From Escherichia phage T4: a stretch of DNA of 64,000 nt. Shown one piece after another: positions 6,056-64,000 of this stretch. How positions within the stretch are numbered: position 1 is the stretch's first letter; each line of letters begins with the position of its first letter. A model generated the notes under the pieces. That model had not been told where the DNA came from and did no database searches. It saw only the letters and a program-made list of their open reading frames with translations. The stretch lies in the sequence record MZ375356.1. One strand, given 5' to 3'. Position numbers and translations under genes: made by a program.

Positions 6056-6433
6056 TTAATCATGTTTCCACACCCCATCGGTATTTGACCAAAGTCGCTG
6101 ATTATCTGATCCTCGCCACAGCTTTTTGGTCGGAAGATTTTTCTCATACTTCCCATCAATAATAACATCAACATATTTAAGCATTTCTAGTTGTTTAATA
6201 TCTTCAAACTTATATCCTGTCCACAACCAGATATCTTTCTCCGGAAATCTTGCTTTAACCCAAGAAACTAAATTTGAAATCTCTTCTCGGTTCTGTGGAT
6301 AAAGTGGGTCACCGCCGGTTAAGGTAAGGCCTTGGATATACGATTTGCTTAAATGGGACGCAAGTTCTTTAACGGTATTCATAGTGAATAACTGTCCGTT
6401 ACGAGCATTCCTTTTAAATATACTAAACAGCAA
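6056..6433 (-). pseudogene. nrdG: nrdG fragment: C-terminal about 110 residues of the anaerobic RNR activase, lacking the N-terminal radical-SAM Cys cluster
   Basis: NGQLFTMNTVKE...GGDPLYPQN...DIWLWTGYK aligns to E. coli NrdG from about residue 40 onward; no CxxxCxxC region. Confidence 0.65.
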
Positions 6434-9313: not shown

Positions 9314-9781
9314 TCAAGACGAAACGGATTCTTCCCAAATCTTTTTAGCCTGCTCATATTCTTTCTGCGCTTTATTAGAAATTTCTAGAACTTCTTTATA
9401 AGCTTTTTCTAGTGCAATAACTTCTGGACGAATTTCTATCGGTTCAGGTGAATCATCAAGACATTCCATTAGTTCCTCAAGGGTAGTTTCTTCTTTAGGA
9501 GTATTCACAATTTCATCACATTTTTGTTGGTAAATTTCTTTACTAGTAGGTGAATAAGCACATTTCACTTCACGAAGGCTAATTACGAGTTTATATCCTT
9601 CCCAACCGCATATTCTTAAAAGGATGTATGAATTTCTACTGTTTCCATACAAAGTAATGCGGTCTCTAATTGACGAGTTAGTGCTAGCAATTGAGAAAAA
9701 TTTATTAATATTCTTTTGGTTAGTTTCTGGTGTAAAAAATCCATAATTCACAAAAAGATACTTTATTTTTATCAAGTTCAT
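9314..9781 (-). CDS. hypothetical protein (155 aa)
   Basis: ORF track. Confidence 0.5.
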   Translation of the reverse strand: MNLIKIKYLFVNYGFFTPETNQKNINKFFSIASTNSSIRDRITLYGNSRNSYILLRICGWEGYKLVISLREVKCAYSPTSKEIYQQKCDEIVNTPKEETTLEELMECLDDSPEPIEIRPEVIALEKAYKEVLEISNKAQKEYEQAKKIWEESVSS

Positions 9782-14772: not shown

Positions 14773-15000
14773 TCATTTATAATAACTTCGATGGTTTTCA
14801 AGATAAACCCTCTCAAGGAAGTCATCCCAGAAACTCATGTCTACTTTTTGCTGCATACCGTTCTTAGAAGCTTCAGTAGATGCTGCTTCTATACCGTCGT
14901 ATGAATATCCTTCACAATGCTCAACTGCTAATTGATATGAATCTATTTCAATATCATGCGCTAATTTAATGATTTTTTCAAACTGTTCGCGTGTTAGCAT
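14773..15000 (-). CDS. hypothetical protein (75 aa)
   Basis: ORF track. Confidence 0.45.
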   Translation of the reverse strand: MLTREQFEKIIKLAHDIEIDSYQLAVEHCEGYSYDGIEAASTEASKNGMQQKVDMSFWDDFLERVYLENHRSYYK

Positions 15001-16142: not shown

Positions 16143-16398
16143 AAAGGCCTCCTATCATTTTTGTCCTGTATTTACTTTGTGCCGATGCACGGCCTTAACA
16201 TCAAGGTATTTTTCAAAATTTCGCAATAGTATAGTCTGCCGGAGATTGGTTGAGTGATACTTCTCGACGCAAAGCTGAAATGATATTTCCAACTTCCCTA
16301 CGAATTTCATCTAATTGAAGAACAGTAAGATTGCGAAGTTGCTTTTCAGTTAATTAGCATATACCCCTTTAGTTAGATACCTATTTATAACTTTTGCA

Positions 16399-17349: not shown

Positions 17350-17981
17350 TAACCATGTCACCTTTAAGCAGTATTCTTCTACATGCTGTTTACGACCTTT
17401 CTTATCAATAGGTATATTCAACGAATGTTCCAATGTAGTCATCTACATCATGTGGACTATTAATTGGACATTTAGTGCGACAAATGCGTTCCCATTGACG
17501 AATAATTACTGCCTTATTCTTTGGGTCATATGGATGTGGATAATGTATATTCAATAATGGTTCCCAATCAACAATCACAATTTCTAATTTAGAGGAATAT
17601 GTATCTAAAATCCCCTCAAATATCCCAGTTCCCTTTACCTATGCCTGCACCAATCCTAGGCATATAGATTGTAGGTTTAATCAGTTTATTTTCACCAAAC
17701 TCATTTAATTCTAACATACAATTCATTAAAGCGGATACTCAATTTGGCCCTGGTTGAAATTGAGTATAAAGATTGAAGCAGTAAGCTTTATGAGTCCTAA
17801 AGTATTTTTCATAGACTGAGTAAGAACCGAGTTTAGTTACATCACCCCATTCAGTCTGTAATTTATCAGCTTCCAAAATTTTAGGGAAAGCTTTGGTTAA
17901 TTGACCCGCTACGCCTGAACCCATAGTATGAAAACAATTATCCATGTGCAATATTTTTACCTTCAGCGAAAAGGGCGACAA
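17350..17981 (-). pseudogene. macro-domain-like protein gene split across at least three frames
   Basis: Fragments ...NCFHTMGSGVAGQL..., ...IYMPRIGAGIGKGNWDI, ...ILDTYSSKLEIVIVDWEPL... in successive frames resemble the glycine-rich and C-terminal motifs of macro domains. Confidence 0.35.
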
Positions 17982-19386: not shown

Positions 19387-19418
19387 TTATACCACAGTCA
19401 AGAGGAGATGTAAACTGT
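19387..19418 (-). promoter_or_regulatory. T4 early-type promoter upstream of regB
   Basis: GTTTACA ... TGTGGTATAAT on minus strand. Confidence 0.5.
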
Positions 19419-19427
19419 TATTTATCT

Positions 19428-19718
19428 TTAATTGCTAGCTGCTTCGATAGCCGCTTGCTGAAGGTCATCCATAGACATGCCGAACTTAGAAGCAAAGTTA
19501 TCAATTTTCTTTTCGACGGCATTCAAAGGCTTGGCCTGTTTACCTTCATTAGCGCCAGGAAGAGCGAGAATACGCTCTCTGTCAATATAAAGGCTTACAA
19601 GTTTCTTACGGTCTTTATCGGGCAAATCATGAAATGAATGGGCCTTTTTATTTACAGCGGCTTCTAATTTACCTGCGCCCACTCGCGCTTCGGCAATAAA
19701 TTCTTGATATGTTTTCAT
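19428..19718 (-). CDS. internal head protein (IPII/IPIII-like)
   Basis: N-terminal capsid-targeting sequence MKTYQEFIAE; 96 aa, basic. Confidence 0.7.
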   Translation of the reverse strand: MKTYQEFIAEARVGAGKLEAAVNKKAHSFHDLPDKDRKKLVSLYIDRERILALPGANEGKQAKPLNAVEKKIDNFASKFGMSMDDLQQAAIEAASN

Positions 19719-19805
19719 ATGTTTCCTTTAAATATTTTAATTAGTAATTGTCTATTCAAGTAATTGTGAATATACTATCACAATTCCAAGAGAAAGTAAA
19801 CAGCT

Positions 19806-20770
<965 letters not shown>

Positions 20771-20943: not shown

Positions 20944-21159
20944 CTATTCTGTCCATTGGATTTTTATAAAAAAGTAAAATACGAATGATGATATAGGAAG
21001 ACTAATGATATACCACTGACCGTCTTCATTACCCATTACTGCGTAAGTTTCAAACATCGGATGGTCAGGACCGATAACTTTAATATCATTCACCGTACGA
21101 CCGAAATCTTCTGAAACACATTTCATAAAGAAGTTGAAAAGTTCACCGTAATTATCCAT
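20944..21159 (-). CDS. hypothetical protein; start taken at MDNYGELF
   Basis: ORF 20944..21210 with promoter overlapping the first 17 codons. Confidence 0.4.
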   Translation of the reverse strand: MDNYGELFNFFMKCVSEDFGRTVNDIKVIGPDHPMFETYAVMGNEDGQWYIISLPISSFVFYFFIKIQWTE

Positions 21160-30733: not shown

Positions 30734-31298
30734 TTTTTATTTGTATTCAATAACTAATAAAACAACAGAAAAAATTTATGTAGGCGTCCACAAAACTTCA
30801 AATTTGGATGATGGGTATGGGTTCTGGCGTTGCCATTAAAAATGCCATTAAAATATGGCATAGATAATTTTTATAAGCATATTATAAAATTCTTTGAATC
30901 TGAAAAAGCTATATGACGCAGAGGCAGAAATAGTCACAGAGGAATTTGTTAAATCTAAGAAAACTTATAATATGAAACTAGGCGGTATCGGTGGCTTCCC
31001 AAAACATAACACAGCGGGTGCTAAAAATGGATTTTACGGTAAATCTCATTCGCGTGAAACTAGATTGAAAATTAGCATTAAATCGTCTAGAAAAAGAGGG
31101 CCTAGAGGGCCTAGAGGTAAAACTCTGAAGATGTGTGGCGCCAATAACCCAAGGTATGGCAAAATAGCCCCTAATGCTAAATCTGTTATCAACGGCGTTT
31201 TATATAAAAGTATTAAAATCGCAGCTAAAGCTCTTAATATAAATTATAGTACCTTAAAGGGGCGAGTTAAAGCGGGGTATTATAAATGCCAGGATTAA
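30734..31298 (+). pseudogene. GIY-YIG (seg-like) homing endonuclease remnant; catalytic domain shattered by frameshifts, C-terminal DNA-binding domain retained as a 134-codon ORF
   Basis: No ATG; YLYSITNKTTEKIYVGVHKTSNLDDGYGF then stop; shifted fragments GSGVAIKNAIKIW and DNFYKHIIKFFESEKA; ORF 30894..31298 has ...YNMKLGGIGG, NUMOD-like GKSHSRETRLKIS and a helix-turn-helix-like tail. Confidence 0.6.
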
Positions 31299-57824: not shown

Positions 57825-59108
57825 ATGGCTAAAATCAACGAACTTCTGCGCGAATCAACCACAACGAATAGCAACTCAATCGGTCGCCCAAATCTCGTTG
57901 CTTTGACTCGCGCTACCACTAAATTAATATATTCTGACATTGTAGCAACGCAAAGAACTAATCAACCTGTTGCTGCTTTTTATGGTATCAAATACCTTAA
58001 CCCAGACAACGAATTTACATTTAAAACTGGTGCTACTTACGCTGGCGAAGCTGGATATGTAGACCGAGAACAAATCACAGAATTAACAGAAGAGTCTAAA
58101 TTAACTCTCAATAAAGGCGATTTATTCAAATATAATAATATCGTTTATAAAGTATTAGAAGATACTCCATTTGCTACTATCGAAGAAAGTGATTTAGAAT
58201 TAGCTCTTCAGATTGCAATCGTTCTTTTAAAGGTTCGTCTATTTTCTGACGCAGCGTCAACAAGCAAATTTGAAAGCTCTGATAGTGAAATTGCGGATGC
58301 TAGATTCCAGATTAATAAATGGCAAACTGCAGTTAAATCTCGTAAACTTAAAACTGGCATCACAGTTGAATTAGCGCAAGATTTAGAAGCAAATGGATTC
58401 GATGCTCCTAATTTCTTGGAAGATTTGCTTGCAACTGAAATGGCAGATGAAATCAATAAAGACATTCTGCAGTCTTTGATTACAGTGTCAAAACGCTATA
58501 AAGTTACAGGAATTACTGATAGTGGATTCATCGATTTGAGTTATGCATCTGCTCCTGAAGCTGGTCGTTCATTATACCGAATGGTATGTGAAATGGTTTC
58601 GCATATCCAAAAAGAATCAACTTATACAGCAACGTTCTGTGTTGCTTCAGCTCGTGCCGCTGCGATTCTTGCTGCATCAGGCTGGTTAAAACATAAACCA
58701 GAAGATGACAAATATCTTTCACAAAATGCCTACGGGTTCTTAGCTAATGGTTTACCGCTTTATTGCGATACTAACAGCCCATTAGATTATGTAATCGTTG
58801 GCGTAGTAGAAAATATCGGTGAAAAAGAAATTGTTGGATCAATTTTCTATGCTCCGTATACAGAAGGTCTCGACTTAGATGACCCTGAACATGTAGGTGC
58901 ATTTAAAGTTGTTGTTGATCCAGAAAGCTTACAACCATCTATCGGTTTATTAGTTAGATATGCTTTATCAGCAAATCCTTATACTGTAGCAAAAGATGAA
59001 AAAGAAGCAAGAATAATTGACGGTGGAGACATGGATAAAATGGCAGGTCGTTCAGATTTGTCTGTTTTATTAGGTGTTAAGCTACCAAAAATTATCATTG
59101 ATGAATAA
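57825..59108 (+). CDS. 24: gp24 capsid vertex protein
   Basis: 427 aa, paralogous to gp23. Confidence 0.95.
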   Translation: MAKINELLRESTTTNSNSIGRPNLVALTRATTKLIYSDIVATQRTNQPVAAFYGIKYLNPDNEFTFKTGATYAGEAGYVDREQITELTEESKLTLNKGDLFKYNNIVYKVLEDTPFATIEESDLELALQIAIVLLKVRLFSDAASTSKFESSDSEIADARFQINKWQTAVKSRKLKTGITVELAQDLEANGFDAPNFLEDLLATEMADEINKDILQSLITVSKRYKVTGITDSGFIDLSYASAPEAGRSLYRMVCEMVSHIQKESTYTATFCVASARAAAILAASGWLKHKPEDDKYLSQNAYGFLANGLPLYCDTNSPLDYVIVGVVENIGEKEIVGSIFYAPYTEGLDLDDPEHVGAFKVVVDPESLQPSIGLLVRYALSANPYTVAKDEKEARIIDGGDMDKMAGRSDLSVLLGVKLPKIIIDE

Positions 59109-59114
59109 AACAAA

Positions 59115-59137
59115 GGGACCTTTCGGTCCCTTTTTAT
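59115..59137. terminator. bidirectional stem-loop gggacctttcggtccc between convergent gene 24 and rnlB
   Basis: T-runs on both strands flank the hairpin. Confidence 0.55.
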
Positions 59138-60142
59138 TTAACTTACCAACTCAATCCAAGCTGGACGAAGTACATCTTGTACCATTTTAACTAATTCCTT
59201 TTTAATCAAAGAAGGATTATCTGCTTGAGTTAGAGTAATACCTTCACGAGAAGTTTCTTCCAAAATATCTTGAACAGTTAGCCCCATCACCTTTCCAAAA
59301 TCCTTTGGACCAATTTCGCCAATTTTAGAAATAACGTTATTTACGCGGTTCAGTGTAACGTAACAAGCTAAAATTCCCACCAATTTGTTATCAGCTTCTG
59401 ATAGCTCAACTTTAGCTTTAATAGGCTTATCAGACTTTTTCTTTTCACTAAATTTAGAGTTCTTGCATTTAATCGCTACACGATTTCCATTACGAAGCCA
59501 AGAAGGATAACAAGGTTTCAATACATATCCTTCAGCAGTAAATACTTCGCCTTTTGCTTCGGCATTCCAAACGCATTTATTTGCATCAACTAATCCAGCA
59601 TGGTCTACTGTAAAATTATAATCTTGGACGACAGAATCTAAATCATTTGGCAATTTAATAAGCTCTTCAAATTTACCGCGACCTAAAAGTGGAGCCATTT
59701 TAAATTTAAATGTATTACAGAATGATTCCATCATATAATCATCTACATAAGTCACATCACCGCTTTCTGTAGTAACAATAATGTCAAATACATAAAAATC
59801 TTTATCACCATAATCAACATTCTTCTGAATGCCAGGTCCAGCGAATTCGCCAAAGACTTGATAAGATACAACCGCTGAGGTTTCCATAATATCTTGTACA
59901 GCTTTAATGGAATCAGCATAATTCTTCAAAATAATTTCATACCCAAAGAAATCTTCAGCAGGAAGAATCGGTCCAGTGCGTTTAGCGCAAGTCACTTTAT
60001 CACGCTCAATAATCAATGAGAAATTTGTGCCGTGAATCTTTTCACGAGCTACCCACTCCCCACCAGTCAATCCCAAGCTATAAAGTTTTTCAATAAATTT
60101 AGAGTTGTAATGATTTTCAAGACTGCTATACTTTTTAAACAT
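59138..60142 (-). CDS. rnlB: RNA ligase 2
   Basis: 334 aa [23 protein letters not shown]... with ligase motif KIHGTN. Confidence 0.9.
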
Positions 60143-60151
60143 AATTAATCC

Positions 60152-60430
60152 TCAAAATGTAATTTCTAACCAATCACCATCACGCTGATCACTATTGACT
60201 TTAAAGCTGAATCCTTCTTTTCTCAGCCAATCACCAATTTCTTCTGTAATCAATTTATCACGAGCAATACAATAATAATTAAAATGTGTTTTACCTTGTT
60301 CAGCTGCTTTATTAGCAAGTTCTGAAAAATCTTTAATAAAACACTCTAGCTTAAACTGTTTACTTTTTAATGCTTTTTCGCGTAATTGATTAGCAAAAGA
60401 TTCATTTTCATAAAGATCATACTGTTCCAT
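60152..60430 (-). CDS. hypothetical protein (92 aa), position of T4 24.2
   Basis: ORF track. Confidence 0.5.
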   Translation of the reverse strand: MEQYDLYENESFANQLREKALKSKQFKLECFIKDFSELANKAAEQGKTHFNYYCIARDKLITEEIGDWLRKEGFSFKVNSDQRDGDWLEITF

Positions 60431-60632
60431 TTTTCACCTTTTTATTGATATGTCTTTTTCTATAGACAACTTTTTCTCGAGTTTCAAATTTATTCTTAGC
60501 AGTCATAGCTCGAGCCCATAATACAGCCACTTCTTTTGCCTGTAAGTTTAATTCACGAGCAATTTCAATGAATGACTTTCCAGACTCATGAAGAGTAAAC
60601 ACCACAACCTCAGTTCTCATAATCAATCTCAT
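60417..60632 (-). CDS. hypothetical protein (71 aa), position of T4 24.3
   Basis: ORF track. Confidence 0.5.
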   Translation of the reverse strand: MRLIMRTEVVVFTLHESGKSFIEIARELNLQAKEVAVLWARAMTAKNKFETREKVVYRKRHINKKVKNGTV

Positions 60633-60698
60633 GTTATCGAGTTGGTGCCATTATATACATCATTTTCTGATTGTGTTTTGTGTGCTTTCAAAATGAAG

Positions 60699-60717
60699 AA
60701 AGGGGCCGAAGCCCCTT
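60699..60717 (-). terminator. stem-loop aggggccgaagcccct followed by T-rich tract on minus strand
   Basis: Directly abuts the stop of the truncated hoc frame. Confidence 0.5.
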
Positions 60718-61271
60718 ATGATAATGATACTTCATTAGAAGTAACGCTTAGTGCATCATAATCTGTCGCGGTTACTTGGGCTACGCATTTAATTCTTTTT
60801 ACTCCACTTGTAGTTGGAGTATAGCTAAATGTAGAGTTAGTTTCTCCACCAACTTGTGAATCATCTACATACCACTGATACGTAGCAGATGCTCCATCAG
60901 GTTGAGAAGCTAAGGCAGCAGTAAATTGAACTGGGGTTCCAATCACTCCAGCCGCAGGACTAGCAGGAGTTACGGCTAAGGTAGTCGTCTGTGTCTTATT
61001 TTTAACTGTGATAGTTGTTGTCGCTTCAGCCGTTTCCGGGCCTCCTTCAGAAAGTGTATTTGTTGCAACTACTTTAATAGTCTTTTGACCGGCAGGTCCT
61101 TTTAGCATAACTAAAAGTTGCTTCAGCTCCATCTTGTGGAACATTATCTACGCTCCAAGCATATGTAATAGTTCCGCCTCCAGTTTGACCACTGGGTGTA
61201 GCAGTAAACTGCTTAGTTTCATCAATAACCCCTGTAGGTGTTTTAGGAGTTATATCAACTGTAAAAGTCAT
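60716..61271 (-). pseudogene. hoc: hoc (outer capsid decoration protein) remnant: frameshift after about codon 55 and loss of the C-terminal half
   Basis: ORF 61074..61271 MTFTVDITPKTPTGVIDETKQFTATPSGQ...EATFSY then frame change; ORF 60716..61144 resumes ...LKGPAGQKTIKVVATNTL... and stops after the second Ig-like domain; span 556 nt versus about 1.1 kb expected. Confidence 0.6.
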
Positions 61272-61280
61272 AAGTTATCC

Positions 61281-61961
61281 TTATTTTAATGTTACGAAAG
61301 AAGAGTTGCGTGTTTCACGAATTAAAACTGATCCATCGCGATTAATGTAATAAATTAAGCTAAATAAAGTTTGGTGTGCTGACGCATGTTCAAAACTAGT
61401 TGGGTGAGATTTCCAATCAGGAGTTTCAGCAATCCATTGATAAATCCACCAAGGAACAGTACAGAATCCTGGATTTTTTCCAATCAGTTGAAGATTCGGA
61501 CTAAAGTTTTCCGGAAGAGTAAATACAGACGGCTTTTCAGATTCAATAATCTCAGCTACAGCCTGTTCGAATTTTTCTTCAACAAAAGGAGTATCTTCAA
61601 TCAAAACATCGGTATTTTCAGGAATTTTATCCGTTTCTACTACTTCAATTTTAATGTCAGATTTAATCGGAGAATCAATCAGAAGTGCTGCTTCTGGATT
61701 GACTTCTTCATCGTCATATTTTAATCCCTCTGCGGCATCAGCAGCATCAATTAAGTCTTTAATAGATAACCCATCAGTCTCTGGCATAGGTTCACTAGCG
61801 AGCTTCTGGAGGGCTTCTTCAATATCAACAACGATATTATCAAAAGATTTATTCTTTTTGACCTTTATACCAAACTGTTCAGCATATTCAGCTAATTTAG
61901 CTTTAGCTTCTTTGTTATCATCAAGAGCCTTCAGCTCTGCAATATAATCTTTATCTATCAT
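61281..61961 (-). CDS. inh: Inh, inhibitor of prohead protease
   Basis: 226-aa ORF in the T4 inh position. Confidence 0.8.
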   Translation of the reverse strand: MIDKDYIAELKALDDNKEAKAKLAEYAEQFGIKVKKNKSFDNIVVDIEEALQKLASEPMPETDGLSIKDLIDAADAAEGLKYDDEEVNPEAALLIDSPIKSDIKIEVVETDKIPENTDVLIEDTPFVEEKFEQAVAEIIESEKPSVFTLPENFSPNLQLIGKNPGFCTVPWWIYQWIAETPDWKSHPTSFEHASAHQTLFSLIYYINRDGSVLIRETRNSSFVTLK

Positions 61962-62009
61962 AATATTTCCTCAGTATAAATATAGATTATTTATTACTCG
62001 GAAAATAGT

Positions 62010-62628
62010 ATGTACCACTTTGTATATGAAACAACAAATCTAATAAATGGTAAAAAGTATATAGGAAAGCACTCTACTGATGACTTGAATGATGGTTACC
62101 TTGGTTCCGGTAAGGCAATTCAGCAGGCTATAAAGAAATATGGTGAAAACAATTTCTCTAGAACAATACTAAAAGAGTTTAAAACTTCCGAAGAAGCGTA
62201 CATGTATGAAGAAGAAATTATAACTCCTGAACTAATAAAAAGCAAAAATTATAATATGAAACCTGGTGGAATTGGTGGAATTGGTGGAATTGTTATGACT
62301 ACAGATGTTATAGCAAAGATGAAAGAATCTTCCGCTAAAAGATTTGAAAACTCACCGGGCACGGTATTAGGTAAAACTTGTTACTAATGGAACTAAAAAT
62401 ATTTTTATTAAACCTGGAGAACTTGTTCCAGAAGGATTTGTAAAAGGGATGGTTCATCCTAATAGAAAGTCCAGAAAAGGATGTAAAGTCAAACCGACTA
62501 CCACAGGAACTTTTTGGGTCAATAATGGCGCAAAATAAATTAATACAACCAGACGGTATTATTCCCGACGGATTTATTAAAGGTCGTCTCATGAAAAGAG
62601 ATTCTAAAGGCAAATTTAGTAAGGCAAT
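62010..62628 (+). pseudogene. segE: segE-like GIY-YIG homing endonuclease; intact catalytic-domain ORF (62010..62387), C-terminal region frameshifted
   Basis: MYHFVYETTNLINGKKYIGKHSTDDLNDGYLGSG...KPGGIGGIGG; after the stop, Seg-type C-terminal motifs (PEGFVKG, TGTFWVNNG, PDGFIKGR) appear in two other frames. Confidence 0.55.
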
Positions 62629-62629
62629 T

Positions 62630-64000
62630 ATGGATATTAAAGTACATTTTCACGACTTCAGTCATGTACGCATCGATTGTGAAGAGAGCACGTTCCACGA
62701 ATTAAGAGATTTCTTTTCGTTTGAGGCCGATGGATATAGATTTAATCCTCGCTTCAGATATGGCAACTGGGATGGACGAATCCGTCTTTTAGATTATAAT
62801 CGTCTTCTTCCATTCGGCTTAGTCGGGCAAATTAAAAAATTCTGTGATAATTTTGGCTATAAAGCCTGGATTGACCCACAAATTAACGAAAAAGAAGAAT
62901 TATCAAGAAAAGATTTTGATGAATGGCTTTCTAAATTAGAAATCTATTCAGGAAATAAAAGAATTGAACCGCACTGGTATCAAAAAGATGCAGTGTTCGA
63001 AGGATTAGTTAATCGTCGTAGAATTCTTAATCTTCCAACATCTGCAGGTAAATCTTTAATTCAAGCTTTGCTTGCGCGATATTATTTGGAAAATTATGAA
63101 GGTAAAATTCTTATCATTGTTCCAACAACTGCTCTGACAACTCAGATGGCTGATGACTTCGTCGACTATCGTTTATTCAGCCATGCAATGATAAAGAAAA
63201 TTGGTGGCGGAGCATCAAAAGATGATAAATATAAAAATGATGCACCAGTCGTTGTTGGTACATGGCAAACTGTAGTAAAACAACCGAAAGAATGGTTCTC
63301 ACAGTTTGGAATGATGATGAATGATGAATGCCATCTTGCTACAGGAAAAAGTATTTCATCTATCATATCAGGTTTAAATAACTGCATGTTCAAATTCGGT
63401 TTGTCTGGTTCATTACGTGATGGCAAAGCCAATATCATGCAGTATGTTGGAATGTTTGGTGAAATATTTAAACCAGTAACGACTTCTAAATTAATGGAAG
63501 ATGGACAAGTAACTGAGCTAAAAATTAATAGTATTTTTCTTCGCTATCCCGATGAGTTCACTACTAAATTAAAGGGAAAAACTTACCAAGAAGAAATAAA
63601 AATTATTACTGGGCTTAGTAAAAGAAATAAATGGATCGCTAAATTAGCTATTAAGCTTGCGCAAAAAGATGAAAACGCTTTTGTCATGTTTAAACATGTA
63701 TCGCATGGTAAAGCTATTTTCGATTTAATTAAAAATGAATACGATAAAGTTTATTACGTATCAGGGGAAGTTGATACCGAAACCCGCAATATAATGAAAA
63801 CCTTAGCTGAAAATGGTAAAGGAATAATTATAGTAGCTAGTTATGGTGTATTTTCTACTGGTATTTCAGTTAAAAATCTGCATCACGTTGTTTTAGCGCA
63901 CGGTGTTAAATCAAAAATCATTGTATTACAAACAATCGGTCGTGTATTACGTAAGCATGGTTCTAAGACAATAGCAACAGTCTGGGACCTCATAGATGAC
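62630..64000 (+). CDS. uvsW: UvsW helicase, 5' part (457 codons); continues beyond window end
   Basis: MDIKVHFHDFSHVRIDCEESTFHELRDFFSFEADGYRF... recognised as T4 UvsW; Walker A LPTSAGKS; no stop before 64000; absent from the ORF track because it is incomplete. Confidence 0.85.
   Translation, partial: MDIKVHFHDFSHVRIDCEESTFHELRDFFSFEADGYRFNPRFRYGNWDGRIRLLDYNRLLPFGLVGQIKKFCDNFGYKAWIDPQINEKEELSRKDFDEWLSKLEIYSGNKRIEPHWYQKDAVFEGLVNRRRILNLPTSAGKSLIQALLARYYLENYEGKILIIVPTTALTTQMADDFVDYRLFSHAMIKKIGGGASKDDKYKNDAPVVVGTWQTVVKQPKEWFSQFGMMMNDECHLATGKSISSIISGLNNCMFKFGLSGSLRDGKANIMQYVGMFGEIFKPVTTSKLMEDGQVTELKINSIFLRYPDEFTTKLKGKTYQEEIKIITGLSKRNKWIAKLAIKLAQKDENAFVMFKHVSHGKAIFDLIKNEYDKVYYVSGEVDTETRNIMKTLAENGKGIIIVASYGVFSTGISVKNLHHVVLAHGVKSKIIVLQTIGRVLRKHGSKTIATVWDLIDD

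Follow-up and report, generated by a model that had tools for sequence, protein, structure and literature searches.

The hoc gene in the 64,000-nucleotide stretch of Escherichia phage T4 DNA analysed here (record MZ375356.1; the whole stretch is referred to below as the window) carries two lesions: codon 56 has lost 2 bp, and a 579-bp deletion removes the end of the gene together with its stop codon. We interpret it as a doubly inactivated null allele of a dispensable gene in a laboratory-derived multi-mutant T4, and assign this reading a probability of about 90%. The window represents one lesion-rich genome in which hoc is among dozens of lesions, and is not a natural variant. As read from the sequence, the two hoc lesions are redundant: each alone would abolish decoration of the capsid. 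The exact allele is already public in a second record, OL964745.1, and hoc-null T4 has long been known.

Structure of the hoc remnant

The hoc remnant lies on the minus strand at 61271..60716; the ORF list, the three-frame translations and the alignment all return exactly the coordinates given in the initial annotation. The reference T4 gene has 376 codons (NC_000866.4 110187..111317). The position of the remnant is that of T4 hoc: it is flanked by inh and 24.3, shares their strand and is followed by its own terminator, and the surrounding gene order is that of T4 (gene 24, rnlB, 24.2, 24.3, hoc, inh, segE, uvsW). Phage T4 records are 99.6-99.8% identical to the window around hoc and 99.7-99.9% identical over its last 24 kb. 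Ordinary T4 records cover the hoc region in two pieces, with about 1880 of their bases corresponding to 1301 query bases; in a database nucleotide search the only match in a single piece was OL964745.1. Alignment to T4 hoc, the check proposed in the initial annotation, defines the 2-bp and the 579-bp deletions.

The first lesion is the loss of TA from codon 56 (GTA), corresponding to CDS nt 167-168, between window bases 61105 and 61106 on the minus strand; it is also present in OL964745.1. Beginning with the start codon at 61271, the first frame gives MTFTVD…DGAEATFSY, continues as AKRTCRSKDY and stops. This ORF (61271..61074, minus strand) comprises the start codon, codons 1-55, the first base of codon 56, 10 out-of-frame codons and TAA, with a predicted product of 65 aa. 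In place of the uninterrupted frame that leads from the start into the Ig-like domains of the intact gene, the remnant offers a frame that shifts at codon 56 and closes after 65 codons. The break falls after Y55, which agrees with the frameshift after …EATFSY described from the letters alone.

Codons 57-184 (60722..61105, minus strand) encode what remains of Ig-like domain 1 and the whole of domain 2, out of frame with the start. They are contained in a second-frame ORF at 61144..60716, which holds Hoc residues 57-184 (…LKGPAGQKTIKVV…) and ends in …SNEVSLS before its stop codon. Ig-like domain 1 is therefore split by the frameshift, domain 2 is present out of frame, and domain 3 is absent. Direct reading of the sequence places a GGAG 8 nt upstream of the ATG at 61144. 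It is possible that this ATG starts a putative soluble fragment of 142 aa, made of 13 out-of-frame residues, Hoc residues 57-184 and a serine; such a fragment could not bind capsids.

The second lesion removes 579 bp (CDS nt 553-1131), taking out codons 185-376 together with the natural TAA. Its junction lies at 60721|60722 on the minus strand, with one base of ambiguity, and the deletion extends exactly to the end of the hoc stop codon. The TCA TAA that follows the junction (60716..60721, minus strand) consists of the two codons immediately 3′ of the wild-type stop, which here become the last codon and the stop of the second-frame ORF, the new TAA occupying 60718..60716. A terminator scan reports a terminator-like hairpin at 60717..60700 (minus strand), AAGGGGCTTCGGCCCCTT with a T-run after it, and this TAA extends into its stem. 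The hairpin (GGGGC-TTCG-GCCCC plus T-run) is hoc's own terminator, intact and identical to that of the T4 reference. The initial annotation had described a remnant ending after the second Ig-like domain directly against a terminator and had likened the junction to the endpoint of a deletion; the alignment and the terminator scan uphold the former, and the location of the 579-bp deletion confirms the latter.

Domains lost and the expected capsid phenotype

Hoc has three Ig-like domains and a capsid-binding domain at residues 281-376, and its contacts with gp23* are made by Y293, H295, Y304, W306, W309, W310, Q354 and Y360 (PMC10385173). With codons 185-376 deleted, the window lacks the whole capsid-binding domain, including the conserved Y293, H295, W309, W310 and E355-G359, and all gp23*-contacting residues fall within the deleted segment. 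Pfam assigns residues 101-158 of intact Hoc to a PKD domain and residues 193-283 to an I-set domain; the second-frame ORF keeps the PKD domain alone (E=1.3e-5), with no I-set domain. The earlier claim that the third Ig-like domain and the capsid-binding domain are absent is supported by the alignment, while the accompanying figure of about 180 missing residues has to be corrected to 192.

A full-length hoc elsewhere, which the initial annotation had named as the finding that would contradict the loss, is not present in the window. A tblastn search of the window with Hoc returned the remnant and weak matches among its Ig-like repeats, and one with residues 187-376 returned just weak matches to the remaining Ig-like domains. 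The deleted segment, used as a blastn query, gave just chance matches of 12-19 nt in the window, and no copy of it was found in the complete genome assembled from OL964745.1.

Shorter forms of Hoc exist in nature: that of Muldoon has 314 residues and two Ig-like domains, and that of PG7 has 233 residues and one (PMC10385173). The remnant might accordingly be a natural short variant that still decorates the capsid. However, the capsid-binding domain is exactly what is deleted here, and the reading frame is also broken at codon 56. The other T4 records all have the full gene, and the one other carrier of the allele, OL964745.1, is labelled as a mutant clone. We consider a functional short Hoc hardly credible.

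Because every gp23*-contacting residue lies in the deleted part, we strongly infer that the virions are free of Hoc. The downstream remnant, devoid of Ig-like domain 3 and of the entire capsid-binding domain, would give no product that attaches at the centre of the gp23* hexamers, and the phage would stay viable without this non-essential protein. The dispensability of Hoc has been on record since 1977 (Ishii and Yanagida, as cited in PMC3012670), and phage production, viability and infectivity are unaffected in hoc-null mutants (PMC3012670). Dispersion, aggregation and mucus adherence are reported to be altered in Hoc-minus phage (PMC10385173).

In classical hoc-null T4, such as amber and deletion mutants and the hoc- soc- display strains, Hoc is likewise lost, leaving empty scaffolds for Hoc fusions (PMC3012670). 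Those strains carry a single defined lesion in a near-wild-type background, whereas the window combines two redundant lesions with dozens of other knockouts. For users of the strain, all 155 Hoc sites per capsid are expected to be empty, an advantage for displaying Hoc fusions in vitro. Altered dispersion, aggregation and mucus adherence are to be expected as well, and many other accessory genes are missing too.

A sibling mutant clone and the larger deletions

OL964745.1 is described as "Mutant Escherichia phage T4 clone T4_7t1" and has 159,752 bp; OL964735.1, from the same series, is clone "T4_3t3" and has an intact hoc. A preprint cites the latter as a T4 reference. T4_7t1 matches the window exactly at both hoc lesions, the 2-bp deletion of codon 56 and the 579-bp junction, and also carries most of the other small deletions found there and the nrdC.3 deletion. 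The window differs from the T4 reference at 201 positions, 128 of which are common to T4_7t1, and window 59001-63999 is 99.76% identical to OL964745.1 with 2 gap openings. The private hoc junction, the codon-56 deletion, the nrdC.3 deletion and the small indels held in common place the window in the T4_7t1-type lineage.

The two genomes are not the same. In hoc, T4_7t1 has an additional 2-bp deletion at codon 149 that creates a TAG. Moreover, T4_7t1 retains denV, ipII, ipIII and e.2-e.8, all of which are lost in the window, and its large deletions at the loci common to both are shorter (2046, 2046 and 2054 bp). Since T4_7t1 keeps these genes and has the shorter deletions, we take the window to be a more reduced sibling of this clone and a different genome.

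Two further features of T4_7t1 (OL964745.1 1-204 and 157486-159742) lie outside the window. Its soc gene is intact (243 nt), and its rIIA and rIIB annotations are of unusual length, at 1191 and 1110 nt. These annotation lengths suggest an rII rearrangement or deletion in T4_7t1.

Against T4, the window has kilobase-size deletion junctions at 6395-6411 (nrdG-nrdD, 3.3 kb), 9225|9226 (nrdC.3, 905 bp), 14882-14891 (nrdC.11-mobD.3, 2.7 kb), 19403-19422 (vs.3-denV, 2.6 kb), 19687-19832 (ipIII) and 21009-21016 (e.2-e.8, 2.75 kb). Compared with T4_7t1, its deletions are thus still larger at three of the same loci, and ipIII and e.2-e.8 are lost in addition. The deletions of T4_7t1 measure 2046, 905, 2046, 2054 and 579 bp and have 0-1 nt of homology at their ends; the first base lost in the 905-bp deletion is the A of the nrdC.3 ATG. 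On the T4 reference, junctions of these deletions map to 110187/110766, 48955/49859 and 42801/44847. In T4_3t3 there are three deletions, two measuring exactly 100 bp and the third close to that, again with 0-1 nt of homology. The exact sizes and the endpoints at gene boundaries suggest that the deletions of the sibling clones were designed, and the 3t and 7t of the clone names might, at a guess, be counts of targets. The 579-bp deletion in hoc belongs to this set of larger deletions common to T4_7t1, a set that was probably engineered or made by targeted cleavage.

The deletions unique to the window look different, with flanking repeats of 8-20 nt, and of 146 nt at ipIII. After double-strand breaks, T4 is known to undergo minihomology-mediated deletions, which range from hundreds to thousands of bp and affect non-essential genes (PMC8262927), and in which one copy of identical 3-13-nt flanking repeats is kept (Wu et al. 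2021, PMC8262927). The flanking repeats of the window-unique deletions resemble those of this end-joining process. At the hoc junction, by comparison, the ends match perfectly over 1 nt, with an imperfect 7-of-9 repeat (TATCATTA vs TATCCATAA), which falls short of, or just borders on, the 3-13 nt range. At nrdG-nrdD, nrdC.11-mobD.3 and vs.3-denV, the left copy of the repeat adjoins the left end of the 2046-, 2046- and 2054-bp deletions of T4_7t1, an odd coincidence.

Small deletions confined to dispensable genes

We counted small indels in the window against T4 after subtracting the differences also present in T4_3t3. This leaves 66 small indels, made up of 47 2-bp, 12 1-bp, 6 3-bp and 1 4-bp deletions, alongside a few insertions in segE. 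They span window positions 5987-62626 (for example 9614-9633, 16356-16379, 17736-17741, 30816-31186, 57448, 57760 and 62382-62626). All are intergenic or lie in the dispensable genes nrdC.1, nrdC.2, nrdC.4, nrdC.5, nrdC.6, nrdC.7, pin, mobD.5, rI.1, tk.2, tk.3, tk.4, nudE, segB, segC, segD, segE, trna.2, trna.3, trna.4, 5.3 and hoc. None falls in the 31.5 kb of essential genes, where about 65 would be expected (Poisson P ~1e-28).

This distribution bears on whether the hoc frameshift exists only on paper, as the product of sequencing or assembly error, of the kind that long reads might make on DNA with glucosyl-hydroxymethylcytosine. The small deletions do occur in low-complexity A/T contexts (ATAT, TATA, TTT) that are error-prone on some platforms. 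These A/T motifs are, however, equally common in essential and dispensable genes (1743 vs 1780), yet the indels number 0 vs 66. We reject a sequencing artefact because essential genes have no indels despite the equal motif frequency. The codon-56 lesion also recurs in the independently deposited OL964745.1, and the 579-bp deletion by itself would still take out the capsid-binding domain. An artefactual hoc frameshift is very improbable.

The 2-bp deletions favour A/T sequence. Among the 57 distinct 2-bp deletions of the window and T4_7t1 taken together, AT or TA was lost in 36 and AA or TT in 14, so that 50 of the 57 involve A/T only, and a repeat of at least 1 nt is present at 53 of them, against an expected 46%. 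The codon-56 deletion, TA out of GTAC, is one of the four without any repeat. It belongs to a class of some 47 closely similar 2-bp deletions, all at A/T-rich XNX contexts and restricted to dispensable genes.

Several ways of producing such deletions were considered and rejected. Escape from a CRISPR or other guide-RNA nuclease would call for a PAM-like motif at a fixed offset, and none was seen: within 35 nt of the 83 small-deletion sites, no k-mer is enriched save a central A/T tetranucleotide. Designed in-frame stops do not account for the pattern, as an immediate stop arises at only about 10 of the roughly 70 small deletions counted over the window and T4_7t1, and the hoc deletion of the window is not among them. 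A restriction site with a 2-nt overhang is likewise rejected, the deletion contexts having no common recognition sequence. For the TA/AT preference we have also considered psoralen or acridine-type mutagenesis, which is speculation.

Other changes accompany the small deletions. In segE (window 62010-62640) a 9-bp tandem duplication, TGGTGGAAT, produces GGIGGIGGI and is joined by one 3-bp and three 2-bp deletions; the ORF ends at 125 codons, compared with 205. Structural genes carry missense changes that are common to T4_7t1 and mostly G:C to A:T: H454Y and D455N in adjacent codons of gp12, the short tail fibre (42415, 42418), A399T and G960D in gp7 (34761, 36445), D402N in gp18 (50246), L260I in gp6 (32365) and E197K in wac (43224). 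These could be adaptive or mutagen-induced.

The null allele could also have arisen through untargeted, neutral decay of hoc during serial mutagenesis or passage, with the 579 bp lost by minihomology end-joining and the 2 bp by whatever process struck the other dispensable genes. This account differs from an engineered origin in how the lesions arose and not in their outcome, which is the same null allele with Hoc-free capsids, and the confidences of the two readings therefore overlap. It is consistent with the small-deletion sets of the sibling clones, which overlap but are not identical, T4_7t1 having the extra 2-bp deletion at hoc codon 149, and with the repeated hits in several genes, nrdC.4 having been struck about 10 times. 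The imperfect 7-of-9 repeat at the hoc junction would also fit a spontaneous minihomology deletion, given that T4 deletions between 3-13-nt repeats are on record (PMC8262927). Against it, the 579-bp deletion reaches precisely to the end of the stop codon, and T4_7t1 carries, alongside it, two deletions of 2046 bp each whose ends share 0-1 nt; this has the look of design. By our estimate, about 1 frameshift per 400 bp of dispensable DNA is also hard to reach by an untargeted process without lethal hits. Neutral decay is a possible origin, though a doubtful one. Engineering, selection and accumulation of the lesions can be told apart only by inference, and full-text literature searches turned up no account of the construction of this mutant series or of its 2-bp-deletion signature.

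A natural parallel is found in phage T2 (NC_054931.1), whose hoc is also broken by frameshifts and is annotated as two fragments. The T2 gene (segment 623-1739 of that record) has an 11-bp deletion at CDS nt 166-176, a 1-bp deletion at codon 160 and a 2-bp deletion of AT at codon 331. Unlike the window, T2 keeps the DNA of all four domains and has no large deletion, but its 11-bp deletion (equivalent to window 61096-61106) covers the 2-bp site of the window at nt 167-168. The coincidence may be due to chance, which we estimate at about 1 in 100 per comparison, or to a fragile site. That codon 56 is a real fragile site of hoc, perhaps exposing an undescribed T4 process that deletes 2 bp at A/T-rich XNX sequences, seems improbable to us.

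The biological weight of the hoc allele itself is small, since hoc-null T4 is a standard reagent and Hoc has long been known to be dispensable. The larger question comes from its context, namely the source of dozens of 2-bp deletions limited to dispensable genes. If a process of this kind is real and not a by-product of engineering, it would constitute a new mutation signature for T-even phages.
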